From the IMG/VR virus record IMGVR_UViG_2939167301_000003: 37,655 nucleotides of DNA. One strand, written 5' to 3'. This DNA comes from a virus (taxonomy: Duplodnaviria > Heunggongvirae > Uroviricota > Caudoviricetes). Each line of letters starts with the position of its first letter. Position 1 is the stretch's first letter. Below, piece after piece: positions 3,014 to 36,545 of this stretch. Below the pieces are notes generated by a model, which was not told where the DNA came from, made no database searches, and saw nothing but the letters and a program-made list of their open reading frames with translations. The translations under genes were made by a program, and so were the position numbers.

Positions 3014-3237
3014 TGCCGGACAACGTGGATTTTATTCAGGAACAACAGGCTGAATTACTGGAGCGCCAGATTAACGCGGCAAGGGTAAAACATTGCGGTG
3101 TTTCTGCGCTGGTTTGCGAAGAGTGTGACGCGCCAATACCTGCTGCCCGTCGTGCGGCTTATCCGTCAGCCACGCGTTGTGTTTCCTGTCAGTCAGTCTT
3201 TGAAGCAAAAAACAAACATTACCGGAGAACGGCATGA
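3013..3237 (+). CDS. P2 orf82-like, DksA/TraR-type C4 zinc-finger protein
   Basis: CxxC...CxxC (CEECDAPIP...CVSCQ) in a 74-aa protein, the same motif class as DksA/TraR. Confidence 0.7.
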   Translation: MPDNVDFIQEQQAELLERQINAARVKHCGVSALVCEECDAPIPAARRAAYPSATRCVSCQSVFEAKNKHYRRTA

Positions 3238-3509
3238 GTATTCGTATTGAAATTGGCGAACGTTATGTCGTTACCAGTGACAGCTTTCAGTTTATTCTCC
3301 ACGAGAAAAAGAGAGCGGAAAGCGGTAAAAACGCCGGTCAGGAATGGCTGGCGGTGGTTGGTTATTACCCGAAATTAGGCCAGCTCGTTTCCGGCCTGAT
3401 GCATCACGATATTCTGACCGGAAGCGCAAAATCTTTTGCTGATTTAAACGCGCAGGTTGAGCAACTCAGCAAGCGTTGTTCAGAGGCTTTTGGCTCATAT
3501 GGCCGTTAA
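3234..3509 (+). CDS. P2 orf83-like hypothetical protein
   Basis: ORF in early operon, overlapping the start of A. Confidence 0.6.
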   Translation: MSIRIEIGERYVVTSDSFQFILHEKKRAESGKNAGQEWLAVVGYYPKLGQLVSGLMHHDILTGSAKSFADLNAQVEQLSKRCSEAFGSYGR

Positions 3510-5778: not shown

Positions 5779-5985
5779 TAAACATAATGTTTTAGATTGG
5801 TTGCATAATGGTAAGGTTGCTGTTTATCTGTATATGTTAATATGATTACGCTACGTACAAACAATCGACATTTCTTTTTTTCTATATATTAATATTGATG
5901 ATTTTACTGGTGGTACAATAAGTCTATGTTGAAATTCGAGAATTGTATTATTAACAATAAAAACTGGTTCTTTTTATTATACAAG

Positions 5986-6012
5986 GACCACCTCCTTAGG
6001 AGGTGGTCTTTT
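5986..6012 (+). terminator. Rho-independent terminator after A
   Basis: Perfect 10-bp stem GACCACCTCC/GGAGGTGGTC with TTA loop, followed by TTTT. Confidence 0.7.
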
Positions 6013-6017
6013 ACTGT

Positions 6018-8501
6018 TTAACGAGGGTTTCGCGTATAGGTTTCAACTATGTCTGATGCACGTAATTTACATGTGATCAATTGTTCTCTTATAAATATCT
6101 CATCGTGTCGTTTATCACTTGTACAAATGGCCGTGATAAAACTGAGGATAGATGCTTTAAAACGTTCAAGATCATTTATGGTCATTATTCGAGACCCTTC
6201 GTTTAGTGTTGCGGCATATTCAGGCATATTAGAGTGATGTATCATTATAGGTGTGGCGGTAGCAGTTTGATCATACATGTTTCTGAACCATGCACCCGAC
6301 CCATTTAACTGATTGCAGTCATGCTTACTTATTCTTTCTGCGGTTGCTCCATTTTTGCATTCAATTACTAGATAATTGTTTTCTCCCATTGCCCATAAAT
6401 TGTCAGGTCCTTTACCTGTATCATTTTCTGGCCGTTGGCTACGAAAACCGACCAAATATGCAACTTTTTCGATAGCATCTTCGAAGGGATTCGATGTGCC
6501 CTCGGAGAAAATAAGGTTTTCTATTATTGAATTAGTATGCACAACGACTTGATTGGCCGATTCAAAATTACTTCTGAGATAGGAGCTACATTCCCTGGCC
6601 TGTTCAAGTGCCGCACCATTAAGTCTATTATATGTTACGCCGATTAGTGGTTTTAATACCCGATAGTTATCGTTTGATGCAGACTGAAGCAATATCTGAG
6701 CTTCAGATTTGTCATATAAGTTTACATATTCCGCAGCATGTTCTTTTAGATAACCCTTATAAACTTTGTCAGCTGTACTACTATCATTTTTTAGAGTTAA
6801 AGCGGCTTGTTGAAACATATTTCGTGATGCTAAGTCATATGCCAATCTTTTATTTATAGTATGCTGGTCAATCTGCTTATTTTCCAATGTTAAGCCAGTC
6901 AATATACCTTTGCTTTTTGAGACCCAGTCAGAATTGCGTAACAGACAATAATCAAGAGCACCTTTGATTGAATCAATAGTTGTATCCGGCAGTATCGATA
7001 CCAATTGCTGTGAAAGTTGAATTTGTGCTTTCGTTGCTGGAGAAAACCTTTCTAAGGAGGAGCCAAGGAAAACAGCGCCATTTAATGCTTTGCCAAGTAA
7101 GATCACTCCGCAGAAGTCGTCGCTTGATCTCACTCCTCGCCCCATTCCTTGTTCAATTTTCTGGATAATTTCATCTTTGGTTTTTTCGCTTCCAAGCAAT
7201 AAGCTTTGTGAGACTTTATCTATTAGTCTACGAACGTCAGGAAGTCCATCTATTACTAATAGACGACATGCGGTATTTGGTAAATCAATACCATCATATC
7301 TATTAACTAGGACTACTAAGCCAACATGTTGTGTCCTTAATTCTTGTACACCTTGATAAATTGTATTTTTATCTAATATTCTGTCTGCAACATCTTGCCA
7401 AAATCTAGTTCTGTAATCGGATGGTACAATTACAACAACATTATGTTTGGAGGATATCTCCTTGCACATAGCTTTGATATCTACATCAGAAAGACTAGGG
7501 TTTATAACCTGAGGCATTAGTATCATTCTATCACCAATATCACCAATTGTTTTTGGTGTTATCGGATTAGAGAGTGATTCATCCGTTATTCCGAAGTGGC
7601 TCGCTAGAATGGATTCATCGACAAGAGTAGCTGTCATGAATATTTTTCTTCTTGCGTTTGATAGGCTTGGGATCATTTGGATTGGTATGCAATGAGGTGA
7701 TATCTCTATTTTGGAAGCACTTACAACGCATTTCGATAATATTAGATTGTCTTTTATTAATGGCCATTTGAAACTCAAGTCATCATGGTCTTTATTTTCT
7801 AACAAGATTGTCATTATATCATTTATGCTTTCTTGCCATTTCCAAAATGGAACTCTCACATAAGCATTTCTATCGCCGGATTTTATCTCTAGTGTTTTTG
7901 CACCAGCTTGTGTCATTAGTGAATTTTCAAAAATTCTGAATAATTTATCATAGGCAGGGTTGTTTTTTTGAATGCTAATGGAGAATTGTTCTTCAATTGA
8001 AGAAAGGCAAGCGTGAGCATCGTCAATTATTATAGAACCTATTGGTATTCTTTGTCCATCATCTCCAACGCCAAATGCAGAACGTCCATTAACCACTTTG
8101 AATATATTTGTAACTAAAATTTCTTTACCTGCAATAAATTTGGGGGACCTCTCATCTTGAGTTACAGGTATACCAAGTTGATTAGCCTCCAAAACCACTT
8201 GCTCAACTAGATAGTTGTCAGGAACAACATATACAGCGGGACCTTCTCCTTCATTTATACAGCTTTTAAGAATGATTAACCCAACTGAAGTTTTACCGCT
8301 TCCGGTATTCATTTTTATTACATTGGTTGGGCTTCTCCTTGCTTCATACCATTTTTCCCAGACCTCTGATTGCACATCTCGAGGGTATTGAAATTTGGTG
8401 TCTTTGCTCGGTAGAGCTGTAAATATATCTCGCGGTGGAATCGCTGTGTCGCTATTTACACTGGGCGAAAGCTTGGTTAAATCAAGGAAAAAACCAGACA
8501 T
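6018..8501 (-). CDS. SF2 (DEAH-like) helicase fused to a C-terminal PD-(D/E)xK-type nuclease; candidate single-gene anti-phage defence protein in the P2 tin/old cargo position
   Basis: 827-aa ORF with a good SD (AAGAGGA) 6 bp upstream. Helicase motifs seen: Walker A NTGSGKTS, motif II IIIDDAHA, motif III MTATL, motif VI QGMGRGVR. C-terminus has E...GPD...VIECK. Strongly AT-rich compared with flanking phage genes. Confidence 0.7.
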   Translation of the reverse strand: MSGFFLDLTKLSPSVNSDTAIPPRDIFTALPSKDTKFQYPRDVQSEVWEKWYEARRSPTNVIKMNTGSGKTSVGLIILKSCINEGEGPAVYVVPDNYLVEQVVLEANQLGIPVTQDERSPKFIAGKEILVTNIFKVVNGRSAFGVGDDGQRIPIGSIIIDDAHACLSSIEEQFSISIQKNNPAYDKLFRIFENSLMTQAGAKTLEIKSGDRNAYVRVPFWKWQESINDIMTILLENKDHDDLSFKWPLIKDNLILSKCVVSASKIEISPHCIPIQMIPSLSNARRKIFMTATLVDESILASHFGITDESLSNPITPKTIGDIGDRMILMPQVINPSLSDVDIKAMCKEISSKHNVVVIVPSDYRTRFWQDVADRILDKNTIYQGVQELRTQHVGLVVLVNRYDGIDLPNTACRLLVIDGLPDVRRLIDKVSQSLLLGSEKTKDEIIQKIEQGMGRGVRSSDDFCGVILLGKALNGAVFLGSSLERFSPATKAQIQLSQQLVSILPDTTIDSIKGALDYCLLRNSDWVSKSKGILTGLTLENKQIDQHTINKRLAYDLASRNMFQQAALTLKNDSSTADKVYKGYLKEHAAEYVNLYDKSEAQILLQSASNDNYRVLKPLIGVTYNRLNGAALEQARECSSYLRSNFESANQVVVHTNSIIENLIFSEGTSNPFEDAIEKVAYLVGFRSQRPENDTGKGPDNLWAMGENNYLVIECKNGATAERISKHDCNQLNGSGAWFRNMYDQTATATPIMIHHSNMPEYAATLNEGSRIMTINDLERFKASILSFITAICTSDKRHDEIFIREQLITCKLRASDIVETYTRNPR

Positions 8502-8715
8502 TTTTTATCCTCTTACAGGTACTGCGTATTTTCATGAAAGGAGATCACTCAATAACTTCCATCGAGATCGGGTAATAACATTTGAACAGATCGCTGAATA
8601 ACATCGATGGAGATCACTTTTGACTCATTTTGTTATTCAGTGATCTCCATCAATGTTATTGGAACTTCACAGGTGTGTTGATCTGTATCTTTTGCCATTC
8701 CGGTAAAGGATACCT

Positions 8716-10257
8716 ATGCCAACAGTTCCAATTTCTATGAGAAAACTTAAAGAAATTCTTAGGCTTAAATACGGTGTTGGACTCAGCCATCGACAAATTG
8801 GTCGTAGTCTTGCAATCTCCCCTTCCGTTGTATCCAGATATGCTAATCGGGCGGCTCAACTTGGCATAAAGCAGTGGCCCTTACCTACAGGATGGGATGA
8901 TACAAAACTAAAACATGCGTTCCTTCAGACCCAGGTTAAGATGAAGAAGCACTCTCTGCCTGACTGGGCTACAGTACACCGGGAACTGCGTAATAAATGC
9001 GTGACGCTGCAGCTACTCTGGGAAGAATACTGTGAGCGTAATCCAGGCGGTTTTTACAGCTATAACCATTACTGCCGGATGTACCGTGAATGGCTCAAAA
9101 CCACTTCACCATCAATGCGTCAGGTACATAAAGCTGGCGAAAAACTTTTCGTTGATTACTGTGGACCTACCGTTGGCGTTACCGACCCTGAGACCGGAGA
9201 AATAAGAACTGCTCAGGTCATCGTAGCTGTTCTCGGGGCATCAAGTTACACATGGGCAGAGGCCACCTGGTCTCAGCAGCTTGAAGACTGGGTGATGAGT
9301 CATGTTCGCTGCTTCCAGTGGTTGGGTGGCGTTCCTGAACTTGTTGTTCCGGACAATCTGAAAAGCGCCACATCCAGGGCATGTAAGTATGATCCTGACG
9401 TTAACCCTACCTACCAGCAGATGCTTGAGCATTATAATGTCGCAGTTTTGCCTGCGCGGCCACGTAAACCGAAAGATAAAGCCAAAGCTGAAGTTGGCGT
9501 TCAGGTTGTTGAACGCTGGATCATGGCCCGAATCAGGCATGAGATCTTCTACAGCCTTGCATCGCTTAATCAGCGCATTCGGGAGTTGCTGGAAAGACTG
9601 AATAACAAAATAATGCAGAAGTTGGGTTATTCACGTGCAGAACTCTTCATCCAGCTTGATAAACCCGCACTGAAGCCTCTTCCTGAAGCCAGTTACAGTT
9701 ACACCCTGGTGAAGAAAGTCAGAGTCCATGCCGATTACCACGTGGAAATCGACAAACATTACTACTCGGTTCCATGTTCGCTGTTAGGCCAGCAACTGGA
9801 AGCATGGATCTCCGGAGAACTGGTAAGACTCTTCAATCAGGGGCAGGAGGTTGCTGTGCACCCGCGCAAGCGTACTTATGGCTACAGTACCCGCAACGAG
9901 CACATGCCTGAAGCTCATCGACAGCATGCCACCTGGACGCCAGAGCGTCTTCTGGAATGGGCGGGGCACATAGGCAGTGAAACTCATAGTTATGTGCTTC
10001 ATATACTGAACTCTCGTCCACATCCGGAACAAAGCTATCGCTTCTGCCTTGGACTCCTGAACCTTCATAAAAAATACAGTAAAGCCAGACTTAATGCAGC
10101 ATGTGCAAGAGCTCTGAAAACAAAGGTATGGCGTCTGTCAGGTATTAAATCGATCCTGGAAAAAGGTCTGGATAAACAACCTGTTCAGGATCCAAAACCA
10201 GATCTGTTATCCACGATGGAACACGAAAACGTACGCGGCAGTGAGTATTACCACTGA
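8716..10257 (+). CDS. istA: IS21-family transposase IstA
   Basis: 513 aa with N-terminal HTH (LSHRQIGRSLAISPSVVSRY) and a DDE integrase-like core; followed by istB. Confidence 0.85.
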   Translation: MPTVPISMRKLKEILRLKYGVGLSHRQIGRSLAISPSVVSRYANRAAQLGIKQWPLPTGWDDTKLKHAFLQTQVKMKKHSLPDWATVHRELRNKCVTLQLLWEEYCERNPGGFYSYNHYCRMYREWLKTTSPSMRQVHKAGEKLFVDYCGPTVGVTDPETGEIRTAQVIVAVLGASSYTWAEATWSQQLEDWVMSHVRCFQWLGGVPELVVPDNLKSATSRACKYDPDVNPTYQQMLEHYNVAVLPARPRKPKDKAKAEVGVQVVERWIMARIRHEIFYSLASLNQRIRELLERLNNKIMQKLGYSRAELFIQLDKPALKPLPEASYSYTLVKKVRVHADYHVEIDKHYYSVPCSLLGQQLEAWISGELVRLFNQGQEVAVHPRKRTYGYSTRNEHMPEAHRQHATWTPERLLEWAGHIGSETHSYVLHILNSRPHPEQSYRFCLGLLNLHKKYSKARLNAACARALKTKVWRLSGIKSILEKGLDKQPVQDPKPDLLSTMEHENVRGSEYYH

Positions 10258-10268
10258 TACGGGATCCA

Positions 10269-11018
10269 ATGATGAATCATCTTTACGAACAACTGACCGC
10301 ACTTAAACTCACCGGCTTCCGTGATGCGCTTAAAAAGCAACTTGCTCAGCCGGGCACATACCAGGAGCTGGGCTTCGAAGAACGCCTGTCATTACTGACA
10401 GCAGAAGAACTAACCTGCCGTGAAAACAGGAAGGCAGAGCGTCTGATCAAACATGCACGGTTCAGACTTAATGCTGAGTTATCAAAGCTGGATTATCGTA
10501 ACAATAGAGGGCTGGACAGGGCCCTCATCCGTTCACTCAGTCAGGGAAACTGGTTAACCCTGAAACAAAATATTTTACTGACCGGGGCCACCGGCAGCGG
10601 TAAAACGTTCCTGGCATGTGCACTTGGTCATAATGCCTGCCGACAGGGATACAAGGTCTACTATTATCGCCTTAAAGCGCTGATGGAACAGTGCTATCAG
10701 GGGCATGCTGATGGAAGATACAGCAAACTTTTGACCAGGCTGAATAATAGCGATCTGCTGCTTCTGGATGACTGGGGGCTGGAACCTCTCTCATCAGAAC
10801 AGCGTAGCGACCTGCTGGAAATAGTGGATCTGATGTACCAACGAGGCTCAATCATCGTAGTGAGCCAGTTGCCGGTGGAAAACTGGTACAAAATGATCGG
10901 AGACTCCACACATGCGGATGCCATCCTAGATCGACTGGTTCATGGCAGTATCAAGATCGAACTTAAAGGAGAATCAATGCGGAAAATACAATCTCCGTTG
11001 ACCGAAGGAGATCAGTGA
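10269..11018 (+). CDS. istB: IS21-family ATP-binding helper IstB
   Basis: 249 aa with Walker A GATGSGKTF and Walker B LLLLDDWG, typical of IstB. Confidence 0.88.
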   Translation: MMNHLYEQLTALKLTGFRDALKKQLAQPGTYQELGFEERLSLLTAEELTCRENRKAERLIKHARFRLNAELSKLDYRNNRGLDRALIRSLSQGNWLTLKQNILLTGATGSGKTFLACALGHNACRQGYKVYYYRLKALMEQCYQGHADGRYSKLLTRLNNSDLLLLDDWGLEPLSSEQRSDLLEIVDLMYQRGSIIVVSQLPVENWYKMIGDSTHADAILDRLVHGSIKIELKGESMRKIQSPLTEGDQ

Positions 11019-11270
11019 AGGTAATTTAAAAACGGTTCTGTGAAAGTGACACGAACCGATCTCCATCGATGTTACTCACCGATCTCCTTCACGGTAATAC
11101 GCAGGTACATTAGTTTAATTGTTAACGCAGAATTATCATTACCATAACTTGCATTAAGTTGCATTACATTGCATTCATAAACGTTAGCTAGGGGCGAAGT
11201 CTGAGGTTTGATGGGCTATGGTGTCCCCTTTAATACGAGGTTGCATCAAAACCGCCCCATGAAGCGGGCG

Positions 11271-22598: not shown

Positions 22599-23202
22599 TT
22601 CGCGCCTGCTGCCGACCGGCTCATCACCGCTTGAAGTTGCCGCCGCAAAAGCCTGTGCGGAAATTGAAAAAACGCCGGTCAGTATTCGTGAACTGTGGAA
22701 CCCGGATACCTGTCCGGCAAATCTGCTGTCGTGGCTGGCGTGGTCATTTTCGGTTGACCGCTGGGATGATAAGTGGCCGGAAGCGACAAAACGCGCTGTT
22801 ATCCGCGATGCGTATTTCATTCACTGCCATAAGGGCACTATAGGCGCAATCCGGCGTGTGGTGGAGCCGCTCGGCTATCTGATTGAGGTGAGGGAGTGGT
22901 GGCAGCTCAACGAGGAACCGGGGACGTTCCGCATCGTTGTTGGCGTGCTTGAGCAGGGTATTACCGAGGAAATGTATCAGGAGCTGGAGCGTCTCGTTGC
23001 TGATGCAAAACCTGCAAGCCGCCATCTGACGGGACTGGCTATCAGTTTAAGTACAACCGGCAACATTTTTGCCGGTGCGGGATGCTATCACGGCGACGCC
23101 CTGACGGTTTATCCCTACACCCCGGAGGCCATTATTGTCGGAGGGGATTATTTCCCGGCCTCGGCCATTCATTTAATTGATAACCTGAGAGTAAACGCAT
23201 GA
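22591..23202 (+). CDS. I: Baseplate protein I
   Basis: 203 aa (P2 gpI is 176 aa); position between J and H. Confidence 0.8.
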   Translation: MSDSRLLPTGSSPLEVAAAKACAEIEKTPVSIRELWNPDTCPANLLSWLAWSFSVDRWDDKWPEATKRAVIRDAYFIHCHKGTIGAIRRVVEPLGYLIEVREWWQLNEEPGTFRIVVGVLEQGITEEMYQELERLVADAKPASRHLTGLAISLSTTGNIFAGAGCYHGDALTVYPYTPEAIIVGGDYFPASAIHLIDNLRVNA

Positions 23203-24494
23203 CAGTGAAATACTACGCCATTCTGACTAATCAGGGCGCAGCACGGCTGGCTAACGCGACGATGCTTGGCAGTAAGCTGAATCTGACGCAAATGGCCGTT
23301 GGTGATGCGAATGGTGTCTTGCCGACACCAGACCCGGCACAGACAAAACTGATTAATCAGAAACGCATTGCACCGCTGAATCTTCTGAGTGTTGACCCGA
23401 ACAACCAGAGCCAGATTATTGCGGAGCAAATCATCCCTGAGAACGAGGGCGGATTCTGGATCCGTGAGATTGGGCTTTATGATGATGAAGGCGTACTCAT
23501 TGCGGTGGCCAACTGCCCGGAAACGTACAAACCGCAGTTACAGGAAGGCAGTGGTCGTACCCAGACTATCCGCATGATTCTGGTTGTCACGAATATCGAA
23601 GCCATCACGCTGAAAATCGACCCGTCGGTGGTACTGGCGACCCGTAAATATGTGGATGATGAAGTCCTGGAATTAAGGCTGTATGTGGATGACCAGATGA
23701 GAAACCACATTGCCGCACAGGATCCTCATACCCAGTATGCACAGAAACATAATCCGACATTTACCGGAGAACCAAAAGCCCCGACGCCTGCCGCAGGAAA
23801 TAACACCACGCGGATTGCGACCACTGAGTTTGTTCAGGCCGCTATTACCGCTCTGATTAACGGCGCGCCAGCCACGCTGGACACACTGAAAGAAATTGCC
23901 GCAGCCATTAACAATGACCCGAAATTCAGCACCACTATTAACAATGCGCTGTCAGGTAAGCAGCCACTGGATGAGACGCTGACTCATTTGAGCGGAAAGG
24001 ATGTTGCCGGCCTTCTCGCATACCTTGGTTTGGGAGAAACGATAAATAGAGCCTCCAGAGCTATGCAGAAATCGGCTAATGGATCTGATATTTCTGATGT
24101 ATCAGCCTTCCGAAATGCGCTCCAGTTAGGGACCGCTGCAACACGAGATGTTGGAGCAGATAATGCCTCGAAGTTACTGGATTTAGACAGCTTCAGGTCA
24201 ATGATGTCAGGTAATGGCTACATCTACATTCCATGCATTGCGACGACAGGAAACCCGGTGAAACTTATGTTGCAGTGGGGAACGGTGGCAACACAAAAGG
24301 GAGCTGATGCTGGATATGCCTTACCATTTGCTTTTCCCTATGCAGGCTTGTTTGCGACCGGAAACCGTGGAACATCTGGCTACAATGCCGCGATGAATGT
24401 GCGTATTGCCAGCAGAACGCATATCAGTATTCAGAACTGGTCGCCATCCGGAGAGGGCACCGAAGATTGTTGTTTTATCGCGCTGGGGTATTAA
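23199..24494 (+). CDS. H: Tail fibre protein H (constant N-terminal part plus the currently attached variable C-terminal module)
   Basis: N-terminus MTVKYYAILTNQGAARLANA typical of P2-family H. 431 aa, shorter than P2 H. Contains the inversion crossover site at 24013-24038. Confidence 0.88.
   Translation: MTVKYYAILTNQGAARLANATMLGSKLNLTQMAVGDANGVLPTPDPAQTKLINQKRIAPLNLLSVDPNNQSQIIAEQIIPENEGGFWIREIGLYDDEGVLIAVANCPETYKPQLQEGSGRTQTIRMILVVTNIEAITLKIDPSVVLATRKYVDDEVLELRLYVDDQMRNHIAAQDPHTQYAQKHNPTFTGEPKAPTPAAGNNTTRIATTEFVQAAITALINGAPATLDTLKEIAAAINNDPKFSTTINNALSGKQPLDETLTHLSGKDVAGLLAYLGLGETINRASRAMQKSANGSDISDVSAFRNALQLGTAATRDVGADNASKLLDLDSFRSMMSGNGYIYIPCIATTGNPVKLMLQWGTVATQKGADAGYALPFAFPYAGLFATGNRGTSGYNAAMNVRIASRTHISIQNWSPSGEGTEDCCFIALGY
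24013..24038. other. Left 26-bp invertase recombination site (hix/gix-like), inside H
   Basis: TTCTCGCATACCTTGGTTTGGGAGAA; its reverse complement shares TTCTCCCAAACCAA with the right site. The H protein loses P2-like constant sequence at exactly this point (LAYLGLGE). Confidence 0.75.
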
Positions 24495-24496
24495 GA

Positions 24497-24913
24497 ATGA
24501 ATAAATTTTATAAAGGCTCTTTCTATCCGAAAGCACTAAAAGAGGTATATATCAGCGCCGGTTCATGGCCTGAAAATGGCGTTGATGTTGATGATGAAAC
24601 AATAGCAATTTACACAGGCGTAGCGCCAGAAGGCAAAACGCTGGGGGCTGATAAAAATGGTAATCCTGCATGGATTGATATCCCGCCACTCTCCGCTGAA
24701 CAACAGATTATTCAGGCTGAACAGAAAAGAACGGTATTGCGTTCAATGGCTGATAAGGAAATAGTCTGGAGACAGGATGCTTTTGATGCGGAAATCGCGA
24801 CGGCAGAAGAAACCGCCGCGTTGTCTGAATGGAAAAAATATCGGGTCTTACTGATGCGCGTTGATACATCAAATCCCGTCTGGCCTACGCCTCCGGGGGA
24901 GCAGGCCAATTGA
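24497..24913 (+). CDS. G: Tail fibre assembly chaperone G (module for the current orientation)
   Basis: 138 aa ORF immediately after H, inside the invertible segment. Confidence 0.8.
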   Translation: MNKFYKGSFYPKALKEVYISAGSWPENGVDVDDETIAIYTGVAPEGKTLGADKNGNPAWIDIPPLSAEQQIIQAEQKRTVLRSMADKEIVWRQDAFDAEIATAEETAALSEWKKYRVLLMRVDTSNPVWPTPPGEQAN

Positions 24914-25505
24914 TATCCGGCGCGGTGCTGGTATCAGTTACCGTCACCGCGTCAATGTAATCCAGCACGACGTTAAGCCGGGTGGTTTCTGTCTGCGTCA
25001 GTTTTCGCCCGGCCTGCAATTTCAGTTGAATCAGATTAATGGAAGCCATTGCAGTATCAATCAGTGACTGTCGCTGTGTTTCTGCCGCGCCTACTGCGGC
25101 GCTATGCTGTGCCTCAGTATCTGTCACCCATTTCTCACCATCCCATTCATCGTATGGCGTTAACGGGGCGACAGTGGTTGTGTTTTCAGGGTAATCCCCC
25201 GGAGTGGTGATTTCTGCTGCCTCACGGGTTTCTGTGTTATAGACTGTCTCACCCCGATGGTCCGGCACGTACTCCCACGCGGTCAGGTCGGCTGTGCGGC
25301 AAATTGCATAACCAGCCCGCCTTTCCCCGGGGGCATCAGTGCATGAATGTGCAGGAAGGCCAACGCCCACAGCCAGATATTCGGTTGACGTGCAAAGGTA
25401 TTCCCGCGTCTTATTATCGTAGCTGTGGACAACAACCTCTCCTGCAACTGTTGCCAGCCGCGATTCATTCAGCACCGCTGTAGTCATGGTTTTCTTGCTC
25501 ATCAT
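24885..25505 (-). CDS. Alternative tail fibre assembly chaperone (G'), inverse orientation
   Basis: 206 aa convergent ORF inside the invertible segment; C-terminal region resembles tail-fibre assembly proteins. Confidence 0.75.
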   Translation of the reverse strand: MMSKKTMTTAVLNESRLATVAGEVVVHSYDNKTREYLCTSTEYLAVGVGLPAHSCTDAPGERRAGYAICRTADLTAWEYVPDHRGETVYNTETREAAEITTPGDYPENTTTVAPLTPYDEWDGEKWVTDTEAQHSAAVGAAETQRQSLIDTAMASINLIQLKLQAGRKLTQTETTRLNVVLDYIDAVTVTDTSTAPDINWPAPPEA

Positions 25506-25977
25506 GCAGCCCTTACGATGTAGTTAAATGCAATGTTACGTGGCCTTGCATAACCCAGATACTGAATCCCCCAGGCTCCCACTGGAACGGGGTTCCAGAT
25601 ATGTTCTGTAGGTATACTTTTCGCTCTGAGAATATCTGAATTGGTTTCAGTTTTATCCCATCCCAGCAGGGCAATGTCGTTTACCGAAAACTGCACCACG
25701 CTGTCGGGTGATATATTGGCTTCCTGAACCAGATAAGAGCCTTTTTGCCACGACAACAACGTCCGGCTACTGTCCACTCCGCGCCCGTCATCCCAGCCAC
25801 GAATAAATTCACCACGTAAATCAGGCAATATATTTGTCGGGTAAGCCTTTGCCAGTTCCGGGTATTCTTCAGCAGAAAATGCCGCCCCGTTGCATTTCAG
25901 CCAGCCTGTTGGCAGTGTGGCTGAAGGCCACGGAACAGGCACACCAACGGGTAATACAGAGCCTTCTCCCAAACCAA
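25502..25977 (-). CDS. Alternative tail fibre C-terminal module (H'), promoterless; expressed only after inversion fuses it to the constant part of H
   Basis: Minus-strand reading frame runs through the right crossover site. Encodes a tail-fibre tip-like sequence (VPVGVPVPWP...LKCNGAAFSAEEYPELA). The track Met at 26017 is probably artefactual. Confidence 0.7.
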
Positions 25978-25989
25978 CGTTTATGAAAA
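25964..25989. other. Right 26-bp invertase recombination site (hix/gix-like)
   Basis: TTCTCCCAAACC-AA-CGTTTATGAAAA, which fits the hixL pattern TTCTTGAAAACC-AA-GGTTTTTGATAA as recalled; inverted relative to the site in H. Confidence 0.75.
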
Positions 25990-26158
25990 TGCAGAGATAA
26001 CGGGCAAGTGGCATCATCTCCGGTTTTTATTCAGGGGGATGCTCATGCTTATTGGCTATGTACGCGTGTCAACAAATGTAAGCGTCGTCTCAGCACCGTC
26101 TGGCAGATCCTGAAATTCCTGAGAGAATAGTGGACACCAAATATGGTGGACGCAATCC

Positions 26159-26563
26159 ATGAAATCATTAACCGCAGTGCGTAAAAAAAGCCCTAATTAT
26201 CCCGTTGAGTTCAAAATCAAAATGGTTGAACTCTCGCATCGACCAGAGATCTCCGTAGCGCAACTCGCTCGTGAGCATGGGATCAACGATAATTTGCTGT
26301 TCAAGTGGCGCCAGTACTGGCGCGAAGGAAAACTACGTCCTCCTTCAACAACAGAAAACAACGTGCCTGAGCTGCTCCCGATAACACTTGATGCCGAAGA
26401 TGTTGTCCCTACAACCTCCCCCCGGTCACAACCTGTAGCTGCTGCGACACCTGAATCACTCAATATCAGCTGTGAAGTGACGTTCCGGCACGGATCACTC
26501 CGTCTGAATGGTGCCATCAGCGAAAATATCCTGAACCTGCTGATACGGGAGCTCAAACGTTGA
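26159..26563 (+). CDS. IS66-family Orf1 (TnpA, HTH protein)
   Basis: 134 aa, first of three ORFs; start of the next ORF overlaps its stop. Confidence 0.8.
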   Translation: MKSLTAVRKKSPNYPVEFKIKMVELSHRPEISVAQLAREHGINDNLLFKWRQYWREGKLRPPSTTENNVPELLPITLDAEDVVPTTSPRSQPVAAATPESLNISCEVTFRHGSLRLNGAISENILNLLIRELKR

Positions 26564-26907
26564 TCCCATTACCATCAGGGACAAAGATCTGGCTGGTCGC
26601 TGGCATCACCGATATGAGAAACGGCTTCAACGGCCTGGCGGCAAAGGTGCAGACGACGCTGAAAGACGATCCGATGTCAGGTCACGTTTTTATCTTCCGT
26701 GGGCGTAATGGCAGTCAGGTAAAGCTCCTCTGGTCTACCGGCGATGGACTGTGTCTGCTGACCAAACGGCTGGAGCGCGGCCGCTTCGCCTGGCCGTCAG
26801 CCCGGGATGGCAAAGTGTTCCTCACACCGGCACAGCTGGCGATGCTGCTGGAAGGTATCGACTGGCGGCAGCCTAAAAGACTGCTTACGTCCCTGACTAT
26901 GTTGTAA
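26560..26907 (+). CDS. IS66-family Orf2 (TnpB)
   Basis: 115 aa; the MIPLPSG...IWLVAGITDMR N-terminus is typical of IS66 Orf2 as recalled. Confidence 0.85.
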   Translation: MIPLPSGTKIWLVAGITDMRNGFNGLAAKVQTTLKDDPMSGHVFIFRGRNGSQVKLLWSTGDGLCLLTKRLERGRFAWPSARDGKVFLTPAQLAMLLEGIDWRQPKRLLTSLTML

Positions 26908-26955
26908 GCCTCTTTATCCTGGTCGACGCTGAATGAGCCTGGTAATATACCCGGT

Positions 26956-28491
26956 ATGAGCAGCTCACTTCCTGACGATATCAATGCACTGAAACGTCTC
27001 CTTGCCGAACAGGAGGCGCTGAACCGTGCCCTGCAGGAAAAGCTGAACGAGCGTGAACGCGAAATAGACCATCTGCAGGCACAGCTGGATAAGCTGCGCC
27101 GGATGAACTTCGGCAGCCGCTCGGAAAAAGTCTCCCGTCGTATCGCACAGATGGAAGCTGACCTGAAGGCACTTCAGAAAGAAAGTGATACCCTTACCGG
27201 TCGGGTTGACGACCCGGCCGTGCAGCGCCCGCTGCGTCAAACCCGCACCCGCAAACCGTTCCCCGAATCACTCCCCCGCGATGAAAAACGGCTGCTGCCG
27301 GCAGCGTCATGCTGCCCGGAATGTGGAGGCTCGCTGAGCTATCTGGGTGAGGATGCCGCCGAACAGCTGGAGCTGATGCGCAGCGCCTTCCGGGTTATCC
27401 GGACTGTACGTGAAAAGCATGCCTGTACTCAGTGCGATGCCATCGTGCAGGCCCCCGCGCCTTCACGGCCCATCGAGCGGGGTATCGCAGGACCGGGGCT
27501 GCTGGCCCGCGTGCTGATCTCAAAGTATGCAGAGCACACCCCGCTGTACCGCCAGTCTGAAATGTACGGCCGCCAGGGCGTGGAGCTGAGTCGTTCACTG
27601 CTGTCGGGCTGGGTGGATGCATGCTGCCGGCTACTGTCACCGCTGGAAGAAGCGCTTCAGGACTATGTGCTGACTGACGGTAAGCTCCATGCTGATGACA
27701 CGCCTGTCCCGGTGCTGTTGCCAGGCAATAAGAAAACGAAGACCGGGCGGTTATGGACCTACGTTCGTGACGACCGTAACGCCGGGTCAACGCTGGCGCC
27801 GGCGGTGTGGTTCGCTTACAGCCCGGACAGAAAAGGCATCCATCCGCAGACCCATCTTGCGGGGTTCAGTGGTGTACTGCAGGCGGATGCATACGCCGGG
27901 TTCAACGAGCTGTACCGGGATGGCCGGATAACGGAAGCCGCCTGTTGGGCTCACGCCCGCCGTAAAATCCACGATGTGCACGTTCGCACCCCGTCAGCCC
28001 TGACGGAGGAAGCGCTGAAACGGATCGGCGAACTGTACGCCATCGAGGCAGAGATAAGGGGAATGACGGCGGAGCAGCGCCTTGCCGAACGTCAGTTGAA
28101 AACGAAACCGCTGCTGAAATCCCTGGAAAGCTGGCTGCGTGAAAAGATGAAAACCCTGTCGCGACACTCAGAACTGGCGAAAGCGTTCGCATACGCCCTG
28201 AACCAGTGGCCGGCGCTGACGTACTATGCAGATGATGGCTGGGCTGAGGCGGACAATAACATCGCTGAAAATGCGTTGCGGATGGTCAGTCTGGGCCGCA
28301 AAAACTACCTGTTCTTCGGTTCGGATCATGGAGGAGAGCGGGGAGCGCTGCTGTACAGCCTGATCGGGACGTGCAAACTGAACGGAGTGGAGCCAGAAAG
28401 CTACCTCCGCTATGTCCTTGACGTCATAGCCGACTGGCCGATAAACCGGGTCGGCGAACTGCTCCCCCTGGCGCGTAGCACTGCCGACTGA
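26956..28491 (+). CDS. IS66-family transposase (Orf3 / TnpC)
   Basis: 511 aa with an N-terminal leucine-zipper-like coiled coil, a CxxC zinc finger (CPECGG...CTQC) and a DDE-type core. Confidence 0.88.
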
Positions 28492-29160
28492 ATAACACAT
28501 CCCCGTCAATACGGTTCTTGCTGCACGCTTACCAACAAATGACCAGAACACGGAATTGCAGCGTAACGCGCTGGAGTGCGCAGGATGTGAGCTGATTTTT
28601 GAGGATAAAATCAGCGGCACGAAGTCCGACAGGCCGGGGCTGAAAAAACTGCTCAGAACATTATCGGAAGGTGACACTCTGGTAGTCTGGAAGCTGGACC
28701 GGCTGGGGCGTAGTATGCGGCATCTGGTCATTCTGGTTGAGGAGCTGCGCGAACGCGGCATTAATTTTCGCAGCCTGACGGATGCCATTGATACCAGCAC
28801 GCCGATGGGGCGTTTTTTCTTTCATGTGATGGGTGCCCTGGCTGAAATGGAGCGAGAACTCATTGTCGAGCGGACACGCGCCGGACTGGAGGCGGCCAGA
28901 GCCAAAGGTCGTATTGGTGGCAGACGTCCGAAACTCACCGCGAGTGAGTGGGAGCAGGCCGGGCGGTTGCTGGCTGCAGGGGAATCACGTCAACGCGTGG
29001 CACTGATTTTTGATATTGGCCTGTCCACGCTCTATAAAAAATTCCCCGCCTCAGTGACAAAAAATAAATTGTGTCATCCCTTAGCCAACCGGGACAAATA
29101 GCCTGACATCTCCGGCACAACTAAAAATATCACTCACCCATTAACCACGGAGTTAAACGG

Positions 29161-30351
29161 ATGAGTGACTATCATCACGGCGTGCAGGTGCTGGAGATTA
29201 ACGACGGCACCCGCGTCATTTCCACCGTATCCACTGCCATTGTCGGCATGGTCTGCACGGCCAGCGATGCGGATGCGGAAACCTTCCCCCTCAATAAACC
29301 GGTGCTGATTACCAATGTGCAGAGCGCAATTGCAAAGGCTGGTAAAAAAGGCACGCTGGCGGCGTCGTTACAGGCCATCGCCGACCAGTCAAAACCGGTC
29401 ACCGTTGTCGTGCGTGTGGAAGACGGCACCGGTGACGACGAGGAAACGAAACTCGCGCAGACCGTTTCCAATATCATCGGCACCACCGACGAAAACGGTC
29501 AGTACACCGGACTGAAAGCCCTGCTGGCGGCGGAGTCGGTAACCGGTGTTAAGCCGCGCATTCTCGGTGTGCCGGGACTGGACACCAAAGAGGTTGCCGT
29601 CGCACTGGCATCAGTCTGTCAGAAGCTGCGCGCTTTCGGGTATATCAGCGCATGGGGCTGTAAAACCATTTCCGAGGTGAAAGCCTACCGCCAGAATTTC
29701 AGCCAGCGTGAGCTGATGGTCATCTGGCCGGATTTCCTCGCATGGGATACGGTCACCAGTACCACCGCCACCGCGTATGCCACCGCCCGTGCGCTGGGTC
29801 TGCGCGCTAAAATCGACCAGGAGCAGGGCTGGCATAAAACACTGTCCAACGTTGGGGTGAACGGTGTTACCGGCATCAGCGCATCTGTATTCTGGGATTT
29901 GCAGGAGTCCGGCACCGATGCTGACCTGCTGAATGAGTCAGGCGTCACAACGCTGATTCGCCGTGACGGTTTCCGCTTCTGGGGTAACCGTACCTGCTCT
30001 GATGACCCGCTGTTCCTCTTTGAAAACTACACCCGCACCGCGCAGGTGCTGGCCGACACGATGGCTGAGGCGCACATGTGGGCGGTGGACAAGCCCATCA
30101 CCGCAACGCTGATTCGCGACATCGTTGATGGCATCAATGCCAAATTCCGAGAGCTGAAAACAAACGGCTATATCGTGGATGGCACATGCTGGTTCAGCGA
30201 AGAATCCAACGATGCGGAAACCCTCAAGGCCGGAAAACTGTATATCGACTACGACTATACACCGGTGCCTCCTCTCGAAAACCTGACCCTGCGCCAGCGT
30301 ATTACCGATAAATACCTGGCAAATCTGGTCACCTCGGTTAACAGCAATTAA
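29161..30351 (+). CDS. FI: Tail sheath protein FI
   Basis: 396 aa, the exact size of P2 gpFI. Confidence 0.92.
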   Translation: MSDYHHGVQVLEINDGTRVISTVSTAIVGMVCTASDADAETFPLNKPVLITNVQSAIAKAGKKGTLAASLQAIADQSKPVTVVVRVEDGTGDDEETKLAQTVSNIIGTTDENGQYTGLKALLAAESVTGVKPRILGVPGLDTKEVAVALASVCQKLRAFGYISAWGCKTISEVKAYRQNFSQRELMVIWPDFLAWDTVTSTTATAYATARALGLRAKIDQEQGWHKTLSNVGVNGVTGISASVFWDLQESGTDADLLNESGVTTLIRRDGFRFWGNRTCSDDPLFLFENYTRTAQVLADTMAEAHMWAVDKPITATLIRDIVDGINAKFRELKTNGYIVDGTCWFSEESNDAETLKAGKLYIDYDYTPVPPLENLTLRQRITDKYLANLVTSVNSN

Positions 30352-34300: not shown

Positions 34301-35463
34301 TGCTGGATGCACTGACATTTGATGCAGGCAGTACGCTGACGCCGGATTACATGCTGATGCTCGACAGCAGGGATATTACCGGCAATATCAGCGACCGTCT
34401 GATGAGCATGACCCTGACGGATAACCGGGGCTTTGAGGCTGACCAGCTTGATATTGAACTGAACGATGCCGACGGGCAGGTCGGACTACCGATTCGTGGC
34501 GCTGTCCTGACGGTGTATATCGGCTGGAAAGGTTTTGCCCTGGTATGCAAAGGGAAATTTACCGTTGATGAGGTTGAACACCGGGGCGCACCGGATGTGG
34601 TCACCATCCGCGCCCGGAGTGCAGATTTTCGCGGGACGCTCAATTCCCGCCGTGAAGGCTCATGGCATGACACCACGCTCGGTGCGATTGTTGAGGCGAT
34701 AGCCTCCCGTAACAGGCTGGAAGCCAGTGTCGCTCCGTCACTGGCCGGAATTAAAATCCCGCACATCGACCAGTCGCAGGAGTCTGATGCGAAATTTCTG
34801 ACCCGTCTTGCAGAACGCAACGGCGGTGAGGTGTCGGTAAAAATGGGAAAACTGCTGTTTCTCAAAGCGGGGCAGGGGGTGACGGCCAGCGGTAAAAAAA
34901 TCCCGCAGGTCACCATCACCCGCAGCGACGGTGACCGCCATCATTTTGCGATTGCTGACCGTGGAGCCTACACCGGCGTAACGGCAAAGTGGTTACACAC
35001 CAAAGACCCGAAGCCGCAAAAGCAGAAGGTAAAACTGAAACGCAAAAAGAAAGAGAAACACCTGCGCGCACTGGAGCACCCGAAAGCGAAACCGGTCACG
35101 CAGAAGAAAGCGCCAAAAGTACCGGAAGCGCGCGAAGGTGAATACATGGCAGGTGAGGCTGACAATGTTTTTGCCCTGACTACGGTATATGCCACGAAAG
35201 CGCAGGCCATGCGCGCCGCTCAGGCGAAGTGGGATAAACTGCAACGGGGCGTTGCGGAGTTCTCCATCAGCCTGGCTACCGGTCGGGCTGATATTTACAC
35301 GGAAACACCGGTTAAAGTGTCAGGCTTTAAGCGCGTCATAGACGAGCAGGACTGGACAATCACTAAGGTGACACATTTTCTGAATAATAGCGGCTTCACG
35401 ACGTCCTTAGAGCTTGAGGTCAGGCTTTCTGATGTGGAGTACGAAACAGAAGATGATGAGTGA
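34300..35463 (+). CDS. D: Tail protein D (late control / tail assembly)
   Basis: 387 aa, the exact size of P2 gpD. Confidence 0.9.
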   Translation: MLDALTFDAGSTLTPDYMLMLDSRDITGNISDRLMSMTLTDNRGFEADQLDIELNDADGQVGLPIRGAVLTVYIGWKGFALVCKGKFTVDEVEHRGAPDVVTIRARSADFRGTLNSRREGSWHDTTLGAIVEAIASRNRLEASVAPSLAGIKIPHIDQSQESDAKFLTRLAERNGGEVSVKMGKLLFLKAGQGVTASGKKIPQVTITRSDGDRHHFAIADRGAYTGVTAKWLHTKDPKPQKQKVKLKRKKKEKHLRALEHPKAKPVTQKKAPKVPEAREGEYMAGEADNVFALTTVYATKAQAMRAAQAKWDKLQRGVAEFSISLATGRADIYTETPVKVSGFKRVIDEQDWTITKVTHFLNNSGFTTSLELEVRLSDVEYETEDDE

Positions 35464-35903: not shown

Positions 35904-36545
35904 ATGGAAAAAGTTATAATTGAGCTTGATAATCGTTGGGAGTTAGCTGATTTCGCGGTCTTAACGAAAGAGTATTTGCAGCTATATGGTTTTTTTTATG
36001 GCCTAAAAGGAGGATCAAGAGGATATTCAACAATGCCTTGGGAGGGTGGGCACAGTGTGGTGAACTTTTTTAGAGGGGCTTACAGTGCGACTCCACCAGA
36101 TTTACGTCCTGTAGTGAAAAAAATTCAGTATGCCTCTCCTGGCTTTATTGAATTGTCTGCTCTTATTGATATCTCTTGGCAGATTGCTGAGTTAGTTACT
36201 GCTGTTGGTGGAAGTATTCTGGCTGCCAACAAAGTTTACGATCAGGTGATGCGTACATATCGACAAAGAGAATGGGCAAAGTTGAAATCAGAGAAGCTGC
36301 GTATACAGAATCAAATTAAAGAGATTGAACTTGTTTCTGACGCAGTTAAATCACTTGAATCTGTGATGGCACTTAGTGAAGAACAACGTAAAAACTTGGT
36401 TCAACTATCGGGGGCAGATGAACTGGTTCAGTTAAAGATACTTTTGGCTGTTTACCGACGGTTATCTCCTCTTGTTGAGTTGCAAAACAGCGGGAAAGCT
36501 AATTTTTCTGCTGGGAAAAATAAAAATTTAAAAGCGTCCGATTAA
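35904..36545 (+). CDS. Hypothetical 213-aa protein, AT-rich orphan between ogr and fieF
   Basis: Intact ORF, visibly more AT-rich than neighbouring phage and host genes. Followed by a strong intrinsic terminator. No recognisable motif; the C-terminal half looks coiled-coil-like. Confidence 0.55.
   Translation: MEKVIIELDNRWELADFAVLTKEYLQLYGFFYGLKGGSRGYSTMPWEGGHSVVNFFRGAYSATPPDLRPVVKKIQYASPGFIELSALIDISWQIAELVTAVGGSILAANKVYDQVMRTYRQREWAKLKSEKLRIQNQIKEIELVSDAVKSLESVMALSEEQRKNLVQLSGADELVQLKILLAVYRRLSPLVELQNSGKANFSAGKNKNLKASD

Follow-up and report, generated by a model that had tools for sequence, protein, structure and literature searches.

An IS66-family insertion splits the tail-fibre invertase gene of a P2-like prophage in Escherichia coli ST167 and probably locks its host-range switch

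The stretch of DNA analysed here (37,655 nucleotides, hereafter the window) contains a P2-like prophage (Peduoviridae) with a tail-fibre switch of the Mu/P1 type, and we are confident that the invertase of this switch was nulled by an ISEc22-like insertion sequence (IS), which by homology probably hit the recombinational enhancer too. The lesion is an ordinary IS knockout of the invertase gene that largely freezes the switch. The window sequence matches that of E. coli strain 219, which belongs to the ST167 lineage, and the prophage is integrated between cpxP and fieF. Its P2 affiliation is apparent from Pfam matches to integrase, gpA, portal and terminase, from a DNA identity of 97-99.9% to P2-like phages, and from the RefSeq annotation of an identical prophage, which follows the P2 gene order (int, C, cox, B, A, cargo, Q, P, O, N, M, L, then lysis, baseplate, H, G, FI, FII, E, T, U, D and ogr). 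The invertase module is located between the tail-fibre genes and the tail-sheath gene. Two related phage records were set aside: phage S164 is not a second prophage of the IS-bearing strain '164', its host being a different strain 164 (piglet, China), and vB_EcoM-640R3 (99.9% identical), considered as evidence of packaging, is an incomplete record that ends at CDS boundaries and does not bear on the IS.

The interrupted invertase gene

The insertion point lies between codons 11 and 12 of a gene for a Gin-family DNA invertase. On its left, a 5' stub (26045-26077, + strand, ATG at 26045) encodes codons 1-11, MLIGYVRVSTN, including the catalytic Ser9, and its frame runs on into the IS, where it stops after 11 further codons. 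On its right, codons 12-197 and the stop codon (28541-29101, +), recognized by sequence, Pfam and structure match, encode the remaining catalytic domain, the E helix and the HTH_7 DNA-binding domain. The sequence-only reading of this region had placed the break just after the catalytic-serine motif, with the stub followed by an element and then by the rest of the invertase, and this is exactly what is found. It had also expected that removing the element would restore a serine recombinase of about 190 aa: deleting the IS and one repeat copy in silico indeed yields an uninterrupted ORF of 594 nt, encoding 197 aa rather than 190. The reconstructed protein matches Pfam Resolvase (3e-52) and HTH_7 (5.1e-13, residues 138-181), aligns over residues 1-182 with the Mu Gin structures 3UJ3/4M6F (E 6.6e-95, S9 aligned), shares 145/182 residues (80%) with Mu Gin and matches the Hin DNA-binding domain 1HCR (E 9e-9). 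The empty site also occurs naturally: strains 600055 and 720632 carry it with 100% identity over 551 and 599 nt, in a gene of 594 nt annotated as a recombinase (WP_010835463.1).

The element itself is an IS66-family insertion sequence whose size, 2455 bp, and position (26078-28532, +) are as first described. It carries, in the order expected of the family, tnpA (26159-26563, +; HTH_Tnp_1, 9e-12), tnpB (26560-26907, +; TnpB_IS66, IS66 Orf2, E 1.6e-38) and an intact tnpC of 511 aa (26956-28491, +; DDE_Tnp_IS66, E 5e-107) in which zf-IS66, LZ_Tnp_IS66 and the IS66 C-terminal element are also recognized; RefSeq names an identical copy 'IS66-like element ISEc22 family transposase'. Its termini (GTAAGCGT...ACGCTTAC) form a terminal inverted repeat of 8/8 with partial matches further in. 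A perfect 8-bp target-site duplication, CAACAAAT, reads directly at 26070-26077 and 28533-28540, in agreement with the initial description; the + strand of the 37.6-kb window has only three copies of this octamer, two of them flanking the element, and an 8-bp identity at both ends would arise by chance with p ~1.5e-5. The duplication had been taken to indicate a clean and probably recent transposition, which holds on an evolutionary scale only: since the identical junction is present in 80 complete genomes, the insertion predates the spread of a worldwide clone.

The resident invertase of the prophage is null because Ser9 has been split off by 2.45 kb and no downstream frame supplies it. The YxRVST motif with the Ser9 nucleophile is present in the reconstructed ORF only, and the window contains no uninterrupted invertase gene; the only in-frame reading out of the IS into the 3' part has Pro in place of Ser9. 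This reading corresponds to a hybrid ORF (28499-29101, +, mapped from the EJN001 CDS) that RefSeq lists, with no pseudogene flag, as a 200-aa 'recombinase family protein' (WP_062914736.1). That it could be a working enzyme, in which case the gene would not be inactivated, is scarcely credible: the ORF starts at a non-canonical ATC within the right end of the IS, residues 1-6 are missing, Pro stands at the position of the nucleophile, and Gin mutants in S9 are inactive (PMC3575834). The proposal that the invertase should be non-functional is thus borne out, as Gin needs Ser9 (PMC3575834) and no product encoded downstream of the IS can contain it. A practical consequence is that database counts of 'intact invertases' are inflated, because in RefSeq the 3' fragment passes for a normal recombinase of 200 aa.

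The invertible segment and its orientation in ST167

The tail-fibre gene as now assembled (23199-24494, +) encodes a P2 gpH-like protein of 431 aa (Pfam Phage_tail_fib 5.8e-62, Gp53-like_C 1.1e-7), with a constant part up to recombination site L followed by a variable C-terminus carrying Gp53-like_C. Site L (TTCTCGCATACC TT GGTTTGGGAGAA, 24013-24038), at about codon 272 of the fibre gene, and site R (TTCTCCCAAACC AA CGTTTATGAAAA, 25964-25989) are imperfectly palindromic 26-bp sequences in inverted orientation whose centres, TT and AA, have the identical dinucleotides of invertase sites. Site R is identical to P1 cixL at 19/26 positions and to Mu gix at 17/26, and its centre lies 68.5 bp upstream of the invertase ATG. 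The segment between the central dinucleotides (24027-25975, about 1.95 kb) is found reverse-complemented at 100% identity in EJN001 and 11899A_LBHALD. Behind the present fibre gene comes its assembly chaperone (24467-24913, +, 148 aa; Caudo_TAP 1.2e-31), followed on the opposite strand by an alternative chaperone that is silent in the present orientation (24885-25505, -, 206 aa; Caudo_TAP 2.6e-31) and an alternative fibre C-terminus with a Collar domain (25502-26017, -; Collar 2.7e-14). Inversion in silico gives an in-frame fibre of 433 aa, only 25502-25975 of the alternative C-terminus being joined, in frame, to the constant part. A Gin-family serine invertase would flip the 1.95-kb segment between the two 26-bp sites and so exchange the C-terminal, receptor-binding part of the fibre and its matching chaperone for the alternative pair. 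Both orientations are indeed found in nature with breaks at the sites, in the window versus EJN001 and in 600055 versus 720632.

Of 5426 complete E. coli genomes, 80 contain the right IS-invertase junction, and every typed one among them is ST167; the allele is therefore neither private nor very recent. The segment is in the window's orientation in 59 IS-bearing genomes and cleanly flipped in two (EJN001 and EBJ001); 11899A_LBHALD is also flipped but is counted with caution because its assembly is chimeric around the IS (rRNA and IS fragments). In 19 of the 80 the segment was lost through a deletion mediated by a second IS, ISEc12. If orientation were free (50:50), three or fewer flipped genomes out of 62 would have a probability of 9e-15, a value that ignores shared ancestry: the counts are not phylogenetically independent, and a clone that never meets a trans invertase would give the same skew. 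Of the two 100%-identical prophages in which the invertase is intact, that of 720632 is in the flipped orientation and that of 600055 in the other. Only these two were used as a baseline because the ratio in the wider phage family (937 vs 76 records), where the cassettes are differently distributed, is not like for like. The earlier claim that the fibre segment is fixed thus survives as 'probably locked', because 59 genomes stand against two to three flipped ones while the intact relatives show one orientation each, but it does not hold in absolute terms, EJN001 and EBJ001 being inverted with the IS in place. The switch is largely, though not absolutely, frozen, and the orientation that prevails in the worldwide clone that inherited the allele is the one expressing the Gp53-like tip and the 148-aa chaperone.

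Residual inversion and the predicted enhancer

The flipped genomes deserve scrutiny. EJN001 and EBJ001 combine the IS with a precise inversion between the two sites, and the sole difference between EJN001 and the window is an exact inversion of 24022-25977, with an end point that falls at site L. At least one precise inversion postdates the insertion. Homologous import of the IS allele, or of a flipped segment, from a prophage with an intact invertase could mimic this: strain 720632 has, at the same chromosomal site, a prophage that is intact, flipped and otherwise 100% identical, and no invertase is present in EJN001. However, we regard import as very improbable because (i), the segments of EJN001 and 11899A, though flipped, match that of the window at 100% identity and keep the lineage SNP 24604A, where both intact relatives (720632 and 600055) carry G, (ii), the flanks of EJN001 match the window at 100% over 10.7 kb and, (iii) the end points are exactly at the two crossover sites.

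No trans-acting invertase was detected in EJN001: e14 (icd), Rac (ttcA) and Qin (ydfJ), the K-12 pin loci inspected, are all absent; the only invertase-like DNA on its chromosome consists of the split-gene fragment and a 56-codon pinH-like fragment, with no other Gin-family gene detected; and its single plasmid (46-kb IncX3) has a resolvase only 24% identical to the invertase. The absence of a Gin-family enzyme, together with 14-17 identical bases common to the arms, could favour an invertase-free inversion in EJN001 and EBJ001 through short-homology recombination between the inner half-sites, RecA-dependent or not. We consider this very improbable as well: such an event would be extremely rare, yet two to three genomes out of 62 are flipped, and homologies of 14-17 bp are below the usual length of an efficient RecA substrate.

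It could also be argued that the switch is not truly locked, related invertases from other prophages or plasmids flipping it at useful rates so that the IS has little phenotypic consequence. Flipped IS-bearing genomes do exist, Gin-family invertases cross-complement (Pin complements gin mutants, and Kutsukake and colleagues reportedly found in 2006 that Fels-2 Fin acts on the Hin segment), invertase-like DNA occurs in 87% of E. coli genomes, and the flipped 11899A_LBHALD has a second invertase with an intact 5' end. Yet the 59 to 2-3 split in orientation, the absence of another Gin-family gene in EJN001 and the position of the insertion within the predicted enhancer (see below) make this reading unlikely. 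Moreover, 11899A is the only one among the approximately 55 IS-bearing genomes listed with a second close invertase whose 5' region is intact, according to a junction-spanning probe with a single-copy anchor that detects identities of at least 88% only; by the same probe, strain 219, Sanji, CRE1493, EC31 and others lack a second close invertase that is intact at its 5' end. An initial interpretation of the extra invertase-like places in some IS-bearing genomes (three, not two) as trans invertases failing to flip the segment was withdrawn on the evidence of this probe. A largely frozen switch thus remains our preferred reading.

The location of the insertion suggests that rescue in trans would be inefficient. 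The Hin enhancer, without which wild-type Hin shows no activity, spans 65 bp at a distance of about 99-100 bp from hixL and has two Fis sites separated by 47 bp; such enhancers act from kilobases away (PMC3798978). In the P1 record, the Cin enhancer is annotated at cin nt 19-90. An alignment of the present gene with its counterparts in Mu (gin), P1 (cin) and Fels-2 (fin) has its two longest invariant runs at nt 25-35 and nt 73-83, with a spacing of 48 bp, and third codon positions are invariant at 6/10 in the predicted Fis cores versus 6/29 outside (p = 0.03). A degenerate Fis consensus did not discriminate and was not used as a test of the predicted sites. The IS interrupts the gene at nt 33/34, which is 101 bp away from the site R centre, and the target duplication is gene nt 26-33, which overlaps the first invariant run; by homology, the insertion falls inside the predicted proximal Fis site of an in-gene enhancer. 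The IS thus probably also damages a cis element needed by wild-type invertases, and because the insertion lies in this predicted site, rescue in trans by another invertase is probably inefficient, and weaker than the sequence-only reading had assumed.

Nevertheless, a weakened enhancer may remain. The predicted left remnant (gene nt 19-33, 26063-26077) keeps most of the proximal invariant block, TCAACAAAT, and the predicted right remnant (28533-28597, by homology to the P1 cin enhancer like the left one) consists of the duplicated nt 26-33 followed by nt 34-90, with the distal invariant block GCAGGATGTGA at 28580-28590. Owing to the duplication, nt 26-90 are contiguous on the right side, where about 11/15 core positions of the proximal site and the entire distal site survive; some activity may persist because this stretch is contiguous, the distal site is whole and enhancers act at kilobases (PMC3798978).

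The mechanism we propose is that, Gin, Hin and Cin having their enhancer in their own 5' coding region, the IS would break the proximal Fis block and the switch would resist rescue by a related invertase given in trans. The rare flips would then go back to an invertase encoded by a transient co-resident element and acting with low efficiency. It is tempting to go further and to speculate that this one IS disables both the enzyme and the enhancer, making the segment refractory even to cross-reacting trans invertases, and that the few observed flips, two of them in genomes apparently devoid of Gin-family invertases, reflect inversion that was enhancer-impaired or took place without a cognate invertase; we consider this stronger version possible, if somewhat less than an even bet.

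Comparison with known invertible fibre systems

These findings leave current understanding unchanged, but the allele may be useful in several respects. It is a natural counterpart of the gin-null 'locked' phage, and virions from this prophage would bear a single fibre type. If the proposed damage to the enhancer is real, it would be a natural allele for separating the cis and trans requirements of invertasome assembly. As a lineage marker, the IS-invertase junction is stable and can be typed by PCR; taken with the insertion of ISEc12 and the deletions mediated by ISEc12, it illustrates a stepwise prophage decay in a carbapenem-resistant high-risk clone.

The element shares with the ISEc22/IS66 family its tnpA/tnpB/tnpC genes, GTAAGCG-type ends, 8-bp duplication and length of about 2.45 kb; nothing in it is unusual, the ISEc22 assignment being the RefSeq label. 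The switch is clearly akin to those of Mu (Gin/G segment), P1 (Cin/C segment) and e14 (Pin/P segment): all have inverted 26-bp sites with matching central dinucleotides, two alternative fibre C-termini and two chaperones. Like Gin, to which it is 80% identical over 182 residues, the prophage enzyme is a small serine invertase (Resolvase and HTH_7), the distance from site to start codon is 68.5 bp versus 67.5 bp in Mu (gixR to gin), and the 5' coding region is conserved where P1 annotates its enhancer. Unlike in Mu and P1, the host phage is P2-like, the segment, at 1.95 kb, is shorter than theirs (3 to 4.2 kb), the fibre cassettes are different ones (Gp53-like versus Collar here) and the invertase gene is interrupted. 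Comparable modules occur in the P2-like phages Fels-2 (Fin), Escherichia phage pro483, 'P2' of O157:H43 T22, S164 and MET_P1_103_31, where they likewise lie between the fibre and sheath genes, with an invertase identity of 86-99% and a structural module 97-99.9% identical; the invertase is uninterrupted in these phages and split here. Finally, the gin-null Mu phages of the laboratory ('locked G(+)/G(-)') are likewise held in one fibre type by the loss of their invertase, and Pin or Cin can rescue them in trans. In contrast, the allele described here is natural and fixed in a clinical clone, and its lesion probably hits the cis enhancer too, unlike point mutations or deletions in other parts of gin.

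The interrupted invertase gene

The Gin-family invertase gene (26045-29101) is split by a 2455-bp IS66-family element (26078-28532, hereafter the IS), which leaves a 5' stub of 11 codons (MLIGYVRVSTN, from the ATG at 26045 to 26077) and is bordered by the octamer CAACAAAT at 26070-26077 and 28533-28540. The sequence-only reading had described this arrangement exactly, including the perfect 8-bp target duplication; CAACAAAT is found three times in total on the + strand of the window. The IS (termini GTAAGCGT ... ACGCTTAC) contains three IS66-family ORFs, HTH_Tnp_1, TnpB_IS66 and DDE_Tnp_IS66, the last a 511-aa transposase that has the associated zinc finger, leucine zipper and C-terminal module, and identical copies are labelled 'IS66-like element ISEc22 family' in RefSeq. 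Excision in silico of the IS and one repeat copy restores a 594-nt ORF of 197 aa (about 190 aa had been expected), which matches Resolvase (3e-52) and HTH_7 (5e-13) and aligns with the Mu Gin structures 3UJ3/4M6F over residues 1-182 (E 6.6e-95, 145/182 identical). The empty site is present exactly as reconstructed in strains 600055 and 720632, which carry the identical prophage with an intact invertase (100% identity, 551 and 599 nt) and where the annotation shows a recombinase gene of 594 nt. As an event of the IS66 family the insertion is textbook and ordinary in kind.

As had been claimed, the IS lies just after the catalytic-serine motif: Ser9 sits on the stub, the IS follows codon 11, and the stub frame enters the IS and stops after 11 further codons. 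The sole frame running from the IS into the 3' part reads ...AARLPTNDQ..., with Pro at the Ser9 position, and has no canonical start before a TTG at 28556. Because removal or alteration of Ser9 abolishes Gin activity (PMC3575834), and the frame out of the IS has Pro there, the sequence allows the safe inference that the phage's own invertase is null. RefSeq (PGAP) nevertheless annotates a CDS at 28499-29101 as an intact 200-aa 'recombinase family protein' (WP_062914736.1) with no pseudogene flag; this CDS joins 42 nt from the right end of the IS to the 3' fragment of the invertase gene and has an ATC within the IS as its start codon, and the 5' stub has no RefSeq annotation. A literature search on ST167 genomes returned no mention of an IS-split invertase in ST167 genome papers, and this instance seems to have gone undescribed so far, masked by annotation.

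The tail-fibre switch and the spread of the split allele

The window is a P2-like prophage, with an integrase gene (1-1011), gpA (3457-5778), genes for portal, terminase, capsid, lysis and baseplate, a fibre gene (23199-24494), a sheath gene (29161-30351) and tube, tape measure, gpU and gpD genes, followed by the host gene fieF (36735 onward); the RefSeq annotation of the identical prophage was used as well in assigning these parts. Its structural module is 97-99.9% identical to those of such P2-like phages as pro483 and fiAA91-ss. A switch of the Mu/P1 type is placed between the fibre gene and the sheath gene; in it, two 26-bp recombination sites inverted relative to each other, L (24013-24038, TTCTCGCATACC TT GGTTTGGGAGAA) and R (25964-25989, TTCTCCCAAACC AA CGTTTATGAAAA), bound a 1.95-kb segment. 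The segment holds the present fibre C-terminus (Gp53-like_C) and its chaperone (Caudo_TAP, 24467-24913) and, on the opposite strand, an alternative chaperone (24885-25505) and an alternative fibre C-terminus with a Collar domain (25502-25975). Its inversion in silico produces an in-frame 433-aa fibre, WP_069067655.1, which is annotated in naturally flipped genomes.

The right junction between the IS and the invertase was found in 80/5426 complete E. coli genomes. Sanji, CRE1493 and WCHEC005237, all among the 80, are ST167 (PMC6392093), one isolate bears the name 'ST167', and hosts and countries are diverse. The transposition had been called clean and probably recent; clean it is, but recent only on an evolutionary scale, as the junction is common to 80 genomes of one clone and the insertion is older than the clone's spread rather than a strain-specific recent event. 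The left junction is in the window's orientation in 59 of the 80, EJN001 and EBJ001 are flipped, and in the other 19 a deletion via the IS21-family element ISEc12 begins at gpA and ends some 40 bp to the left of site R. One genome additional to the 80, 11899A_LBHALD (11899A), is flipped and chimeric around the IS. In its 'complete' assembly (NZ_CP130447.1, stretches L010 and L019) the prophage parts lie about 1 Mb apart, split at the IS, with rRNA-operon, tRNA and IS3/IS150 fragments where the IS should be; this arrangement is probably a misassembly. A SNP at 24604, in the expressed chaperone gene, is A in all IS-bearing genomes examined and G in both intact relatives (600055 and 720632); it changes WP_025693575.1 to WP_001032315.1 and marks the IS-bearing lineage.

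In the window, ISEc12 (8523-11101) is a second insertion sequence; it encodes IstA (513 aa, 8716-10257) and IstB (249 aa, 10269-11018), has the ends TGCGTATT/AATACGCA and is flanked by duplications at 8516-8522 and 11102-11108 (5-7 bp, CAGGTAC, with a 2-nt boundary ambiguity). It is placed upstream of the helicase gene, 21 bp from the start of that gene, and the end of the portal gene is about 360 bp away. Among the 5426 genomes, strain 219 (NZ_CP020514.1) alone has this junction, which identifies it as the source of the window. In the 19 deleted genomes ISEc12 adjoins a truncated gpA on one side and a 93-bp alternative-fibre remnant on the other, with about 17-20 kb lost (helicase, head, lysis, baseplate, fibre and site L); for example, 3088-7054 of stretch L011 (NZ_CP029973.1) corresponds to about 4750-25925 of the window. 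The prophage is undergoing stepwise decay in this lineage.

The two accessory hotspots of P2 carry cargo. At 6018-8501 (-), an 827-aa DEAD/DEAH helicase has a full-length match to PADLOC PDC-S28 (E = 0, 1055 bits), and between ogr and fieF a 213-aa protein (35904-36545, +) matches PD-T4-10_B (E 1.3e-34); both look like anti-phage defence candidates. Several chromosome records (NZ_CP086338.1, NZ_CP086336.1, NZ_CP085060.1, NZ_CP067250.1 and others) have the prophage gpA (replication endonuclease) gene at position 1, presumably through assembler start-gene rotation in which gpA was mistaken for the replicon initiator.

Orientation of the segment and possible sources of the flips

The segment had been proposed to be fixed in its present orientation. 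A strong skew speaks for this, as IS-bearing genomes keeping both sites number 59 in the window's orientation vs 2-3 flipped; the two 100%-identical prophages with an intact invertase are one in each orientation. Under free 50:50 orientation the probability of at most 3/62 flipped is about 9e-15, a figure inflated by shared ancestry. The lock is not absolute, however: EJN001 is flipped despite the IS. Its flanks, including the IS, are 100% identical to the window's over 10.7 kb and 24022-25977 is exactly reverse-complemented. That the inner segments of EJN001 and 11899A are 100% identical to the window's, both with 24604A where both intact relatives have G, argues for an inversion in place after the insertion rather than import of a flipped segment. 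This natural census of orientations is clean and goes beyond routine.

Sensitive blastn of the EJN001 chromosome found two invertase-like places, the 3' fragment itself and a 56-codon pinH-like internal fragment adjoining ypjA. The latter (34901-35068 in stretch L008, NZ_CP086338.1), derived from a Gin-family invertase and 68% identical to residues 42-94, explains the second invertase-like match in most genomes of the clone. The prophages e14, Rac and Qin are absent from EJN001, and the only serine recombinase of its single plasmid, a 46-kb IncX3 NDM-5 plasmid, is 24% identical to the invertase. A probe for invertases in trans, built from a single-copy anchor and the intact junction (60 nt) and positive in control genomes with an intact invertase, was negative for a further close invertase whose 5' end is intact in 219, M217, Sanji, CRE1493, EJN001, EBJ001 and some 50 more IS-bearing genomes; 11899A was the only IS-bearing genome with one. 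Strain 219 has three invertase-like places vs a lineage norm of two, and it lacks any close homologue whose 5' junction is intact. Flips in genomes that lack any invertase of the Gin family are unexplained, and are one of the few points beyond routine. Short-homology recombination between the inner half-sites, which share 14-17 identical bases, could have produced them; the most economical explanation is that a phage or plasmid once resident in the same cell donated the invertase transiently and was then lost.

The predicted enhancer and the relation to known switches

Wild-type invertases of the Hin family require a Fis-bound enhancer in cis for activity; that of Hin spans 65 bp, contains a pair of Fis sites at a spacing of 47 bp, lies about 99-100 bp from hixL and also acts from kilobases away (PMC3798978). 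The Cin enhancer is annotated at cin nt 19-90 in the P1 GenBank record. An alignment of the opening 120 nt of the reconstructed gene to gin of Mu, cin of P1 and fin of Fels-2 has its two longest invariant runs at nt 25-35 (TCAACAAATGA) and nt 73-83 (GCAGGATGTGA), 48 bp apart, and third codon positions are invariant at 6/10 inside the predicted 15-bp cores vs 6/29 outside (p = 0.03). The geometry is conserved, the distance from the R centre to the ATG being 68.5 bp here and 67.5 bp in Mu.

The IS splits the gene after nt 33, at 101 bp from the R centre, and its duplication (nt 26-33) falls inside the proximal block; each copy has lost one flank of the 15-bp core (left junction GTGTCAACAAAT/GTA, right junction TTAC/CAACAAATGAC); on the right side nt 26-90 are still contiguous. 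Because the core flanks are lost and nt 26-90 have moved 2.46 kb farther from R, the predicted enhancer is probably weakened or inactive. If so, rescue in trans would be inefficient, in agreement with the rare flips; the genome census is uninformative on this effect because a candidate trans enzyme is present in almost none of the genomes. It is likely that enzyme and enhancer were struck together by one insertion, which takes this case beyond routine.

Of their 26 positions, the recombination sites share 19 with P1 cix and 17 with Mu gix. In its working the switch resembles Mu Gin/G, P1 Cin/C, e14 Pin/P and Fels-2 Fin, and by its sequence features, of which the enhancer is a predicted one, it belongs with the Gin/Cin/Pin/Fin family, save that the gene is interrupted.
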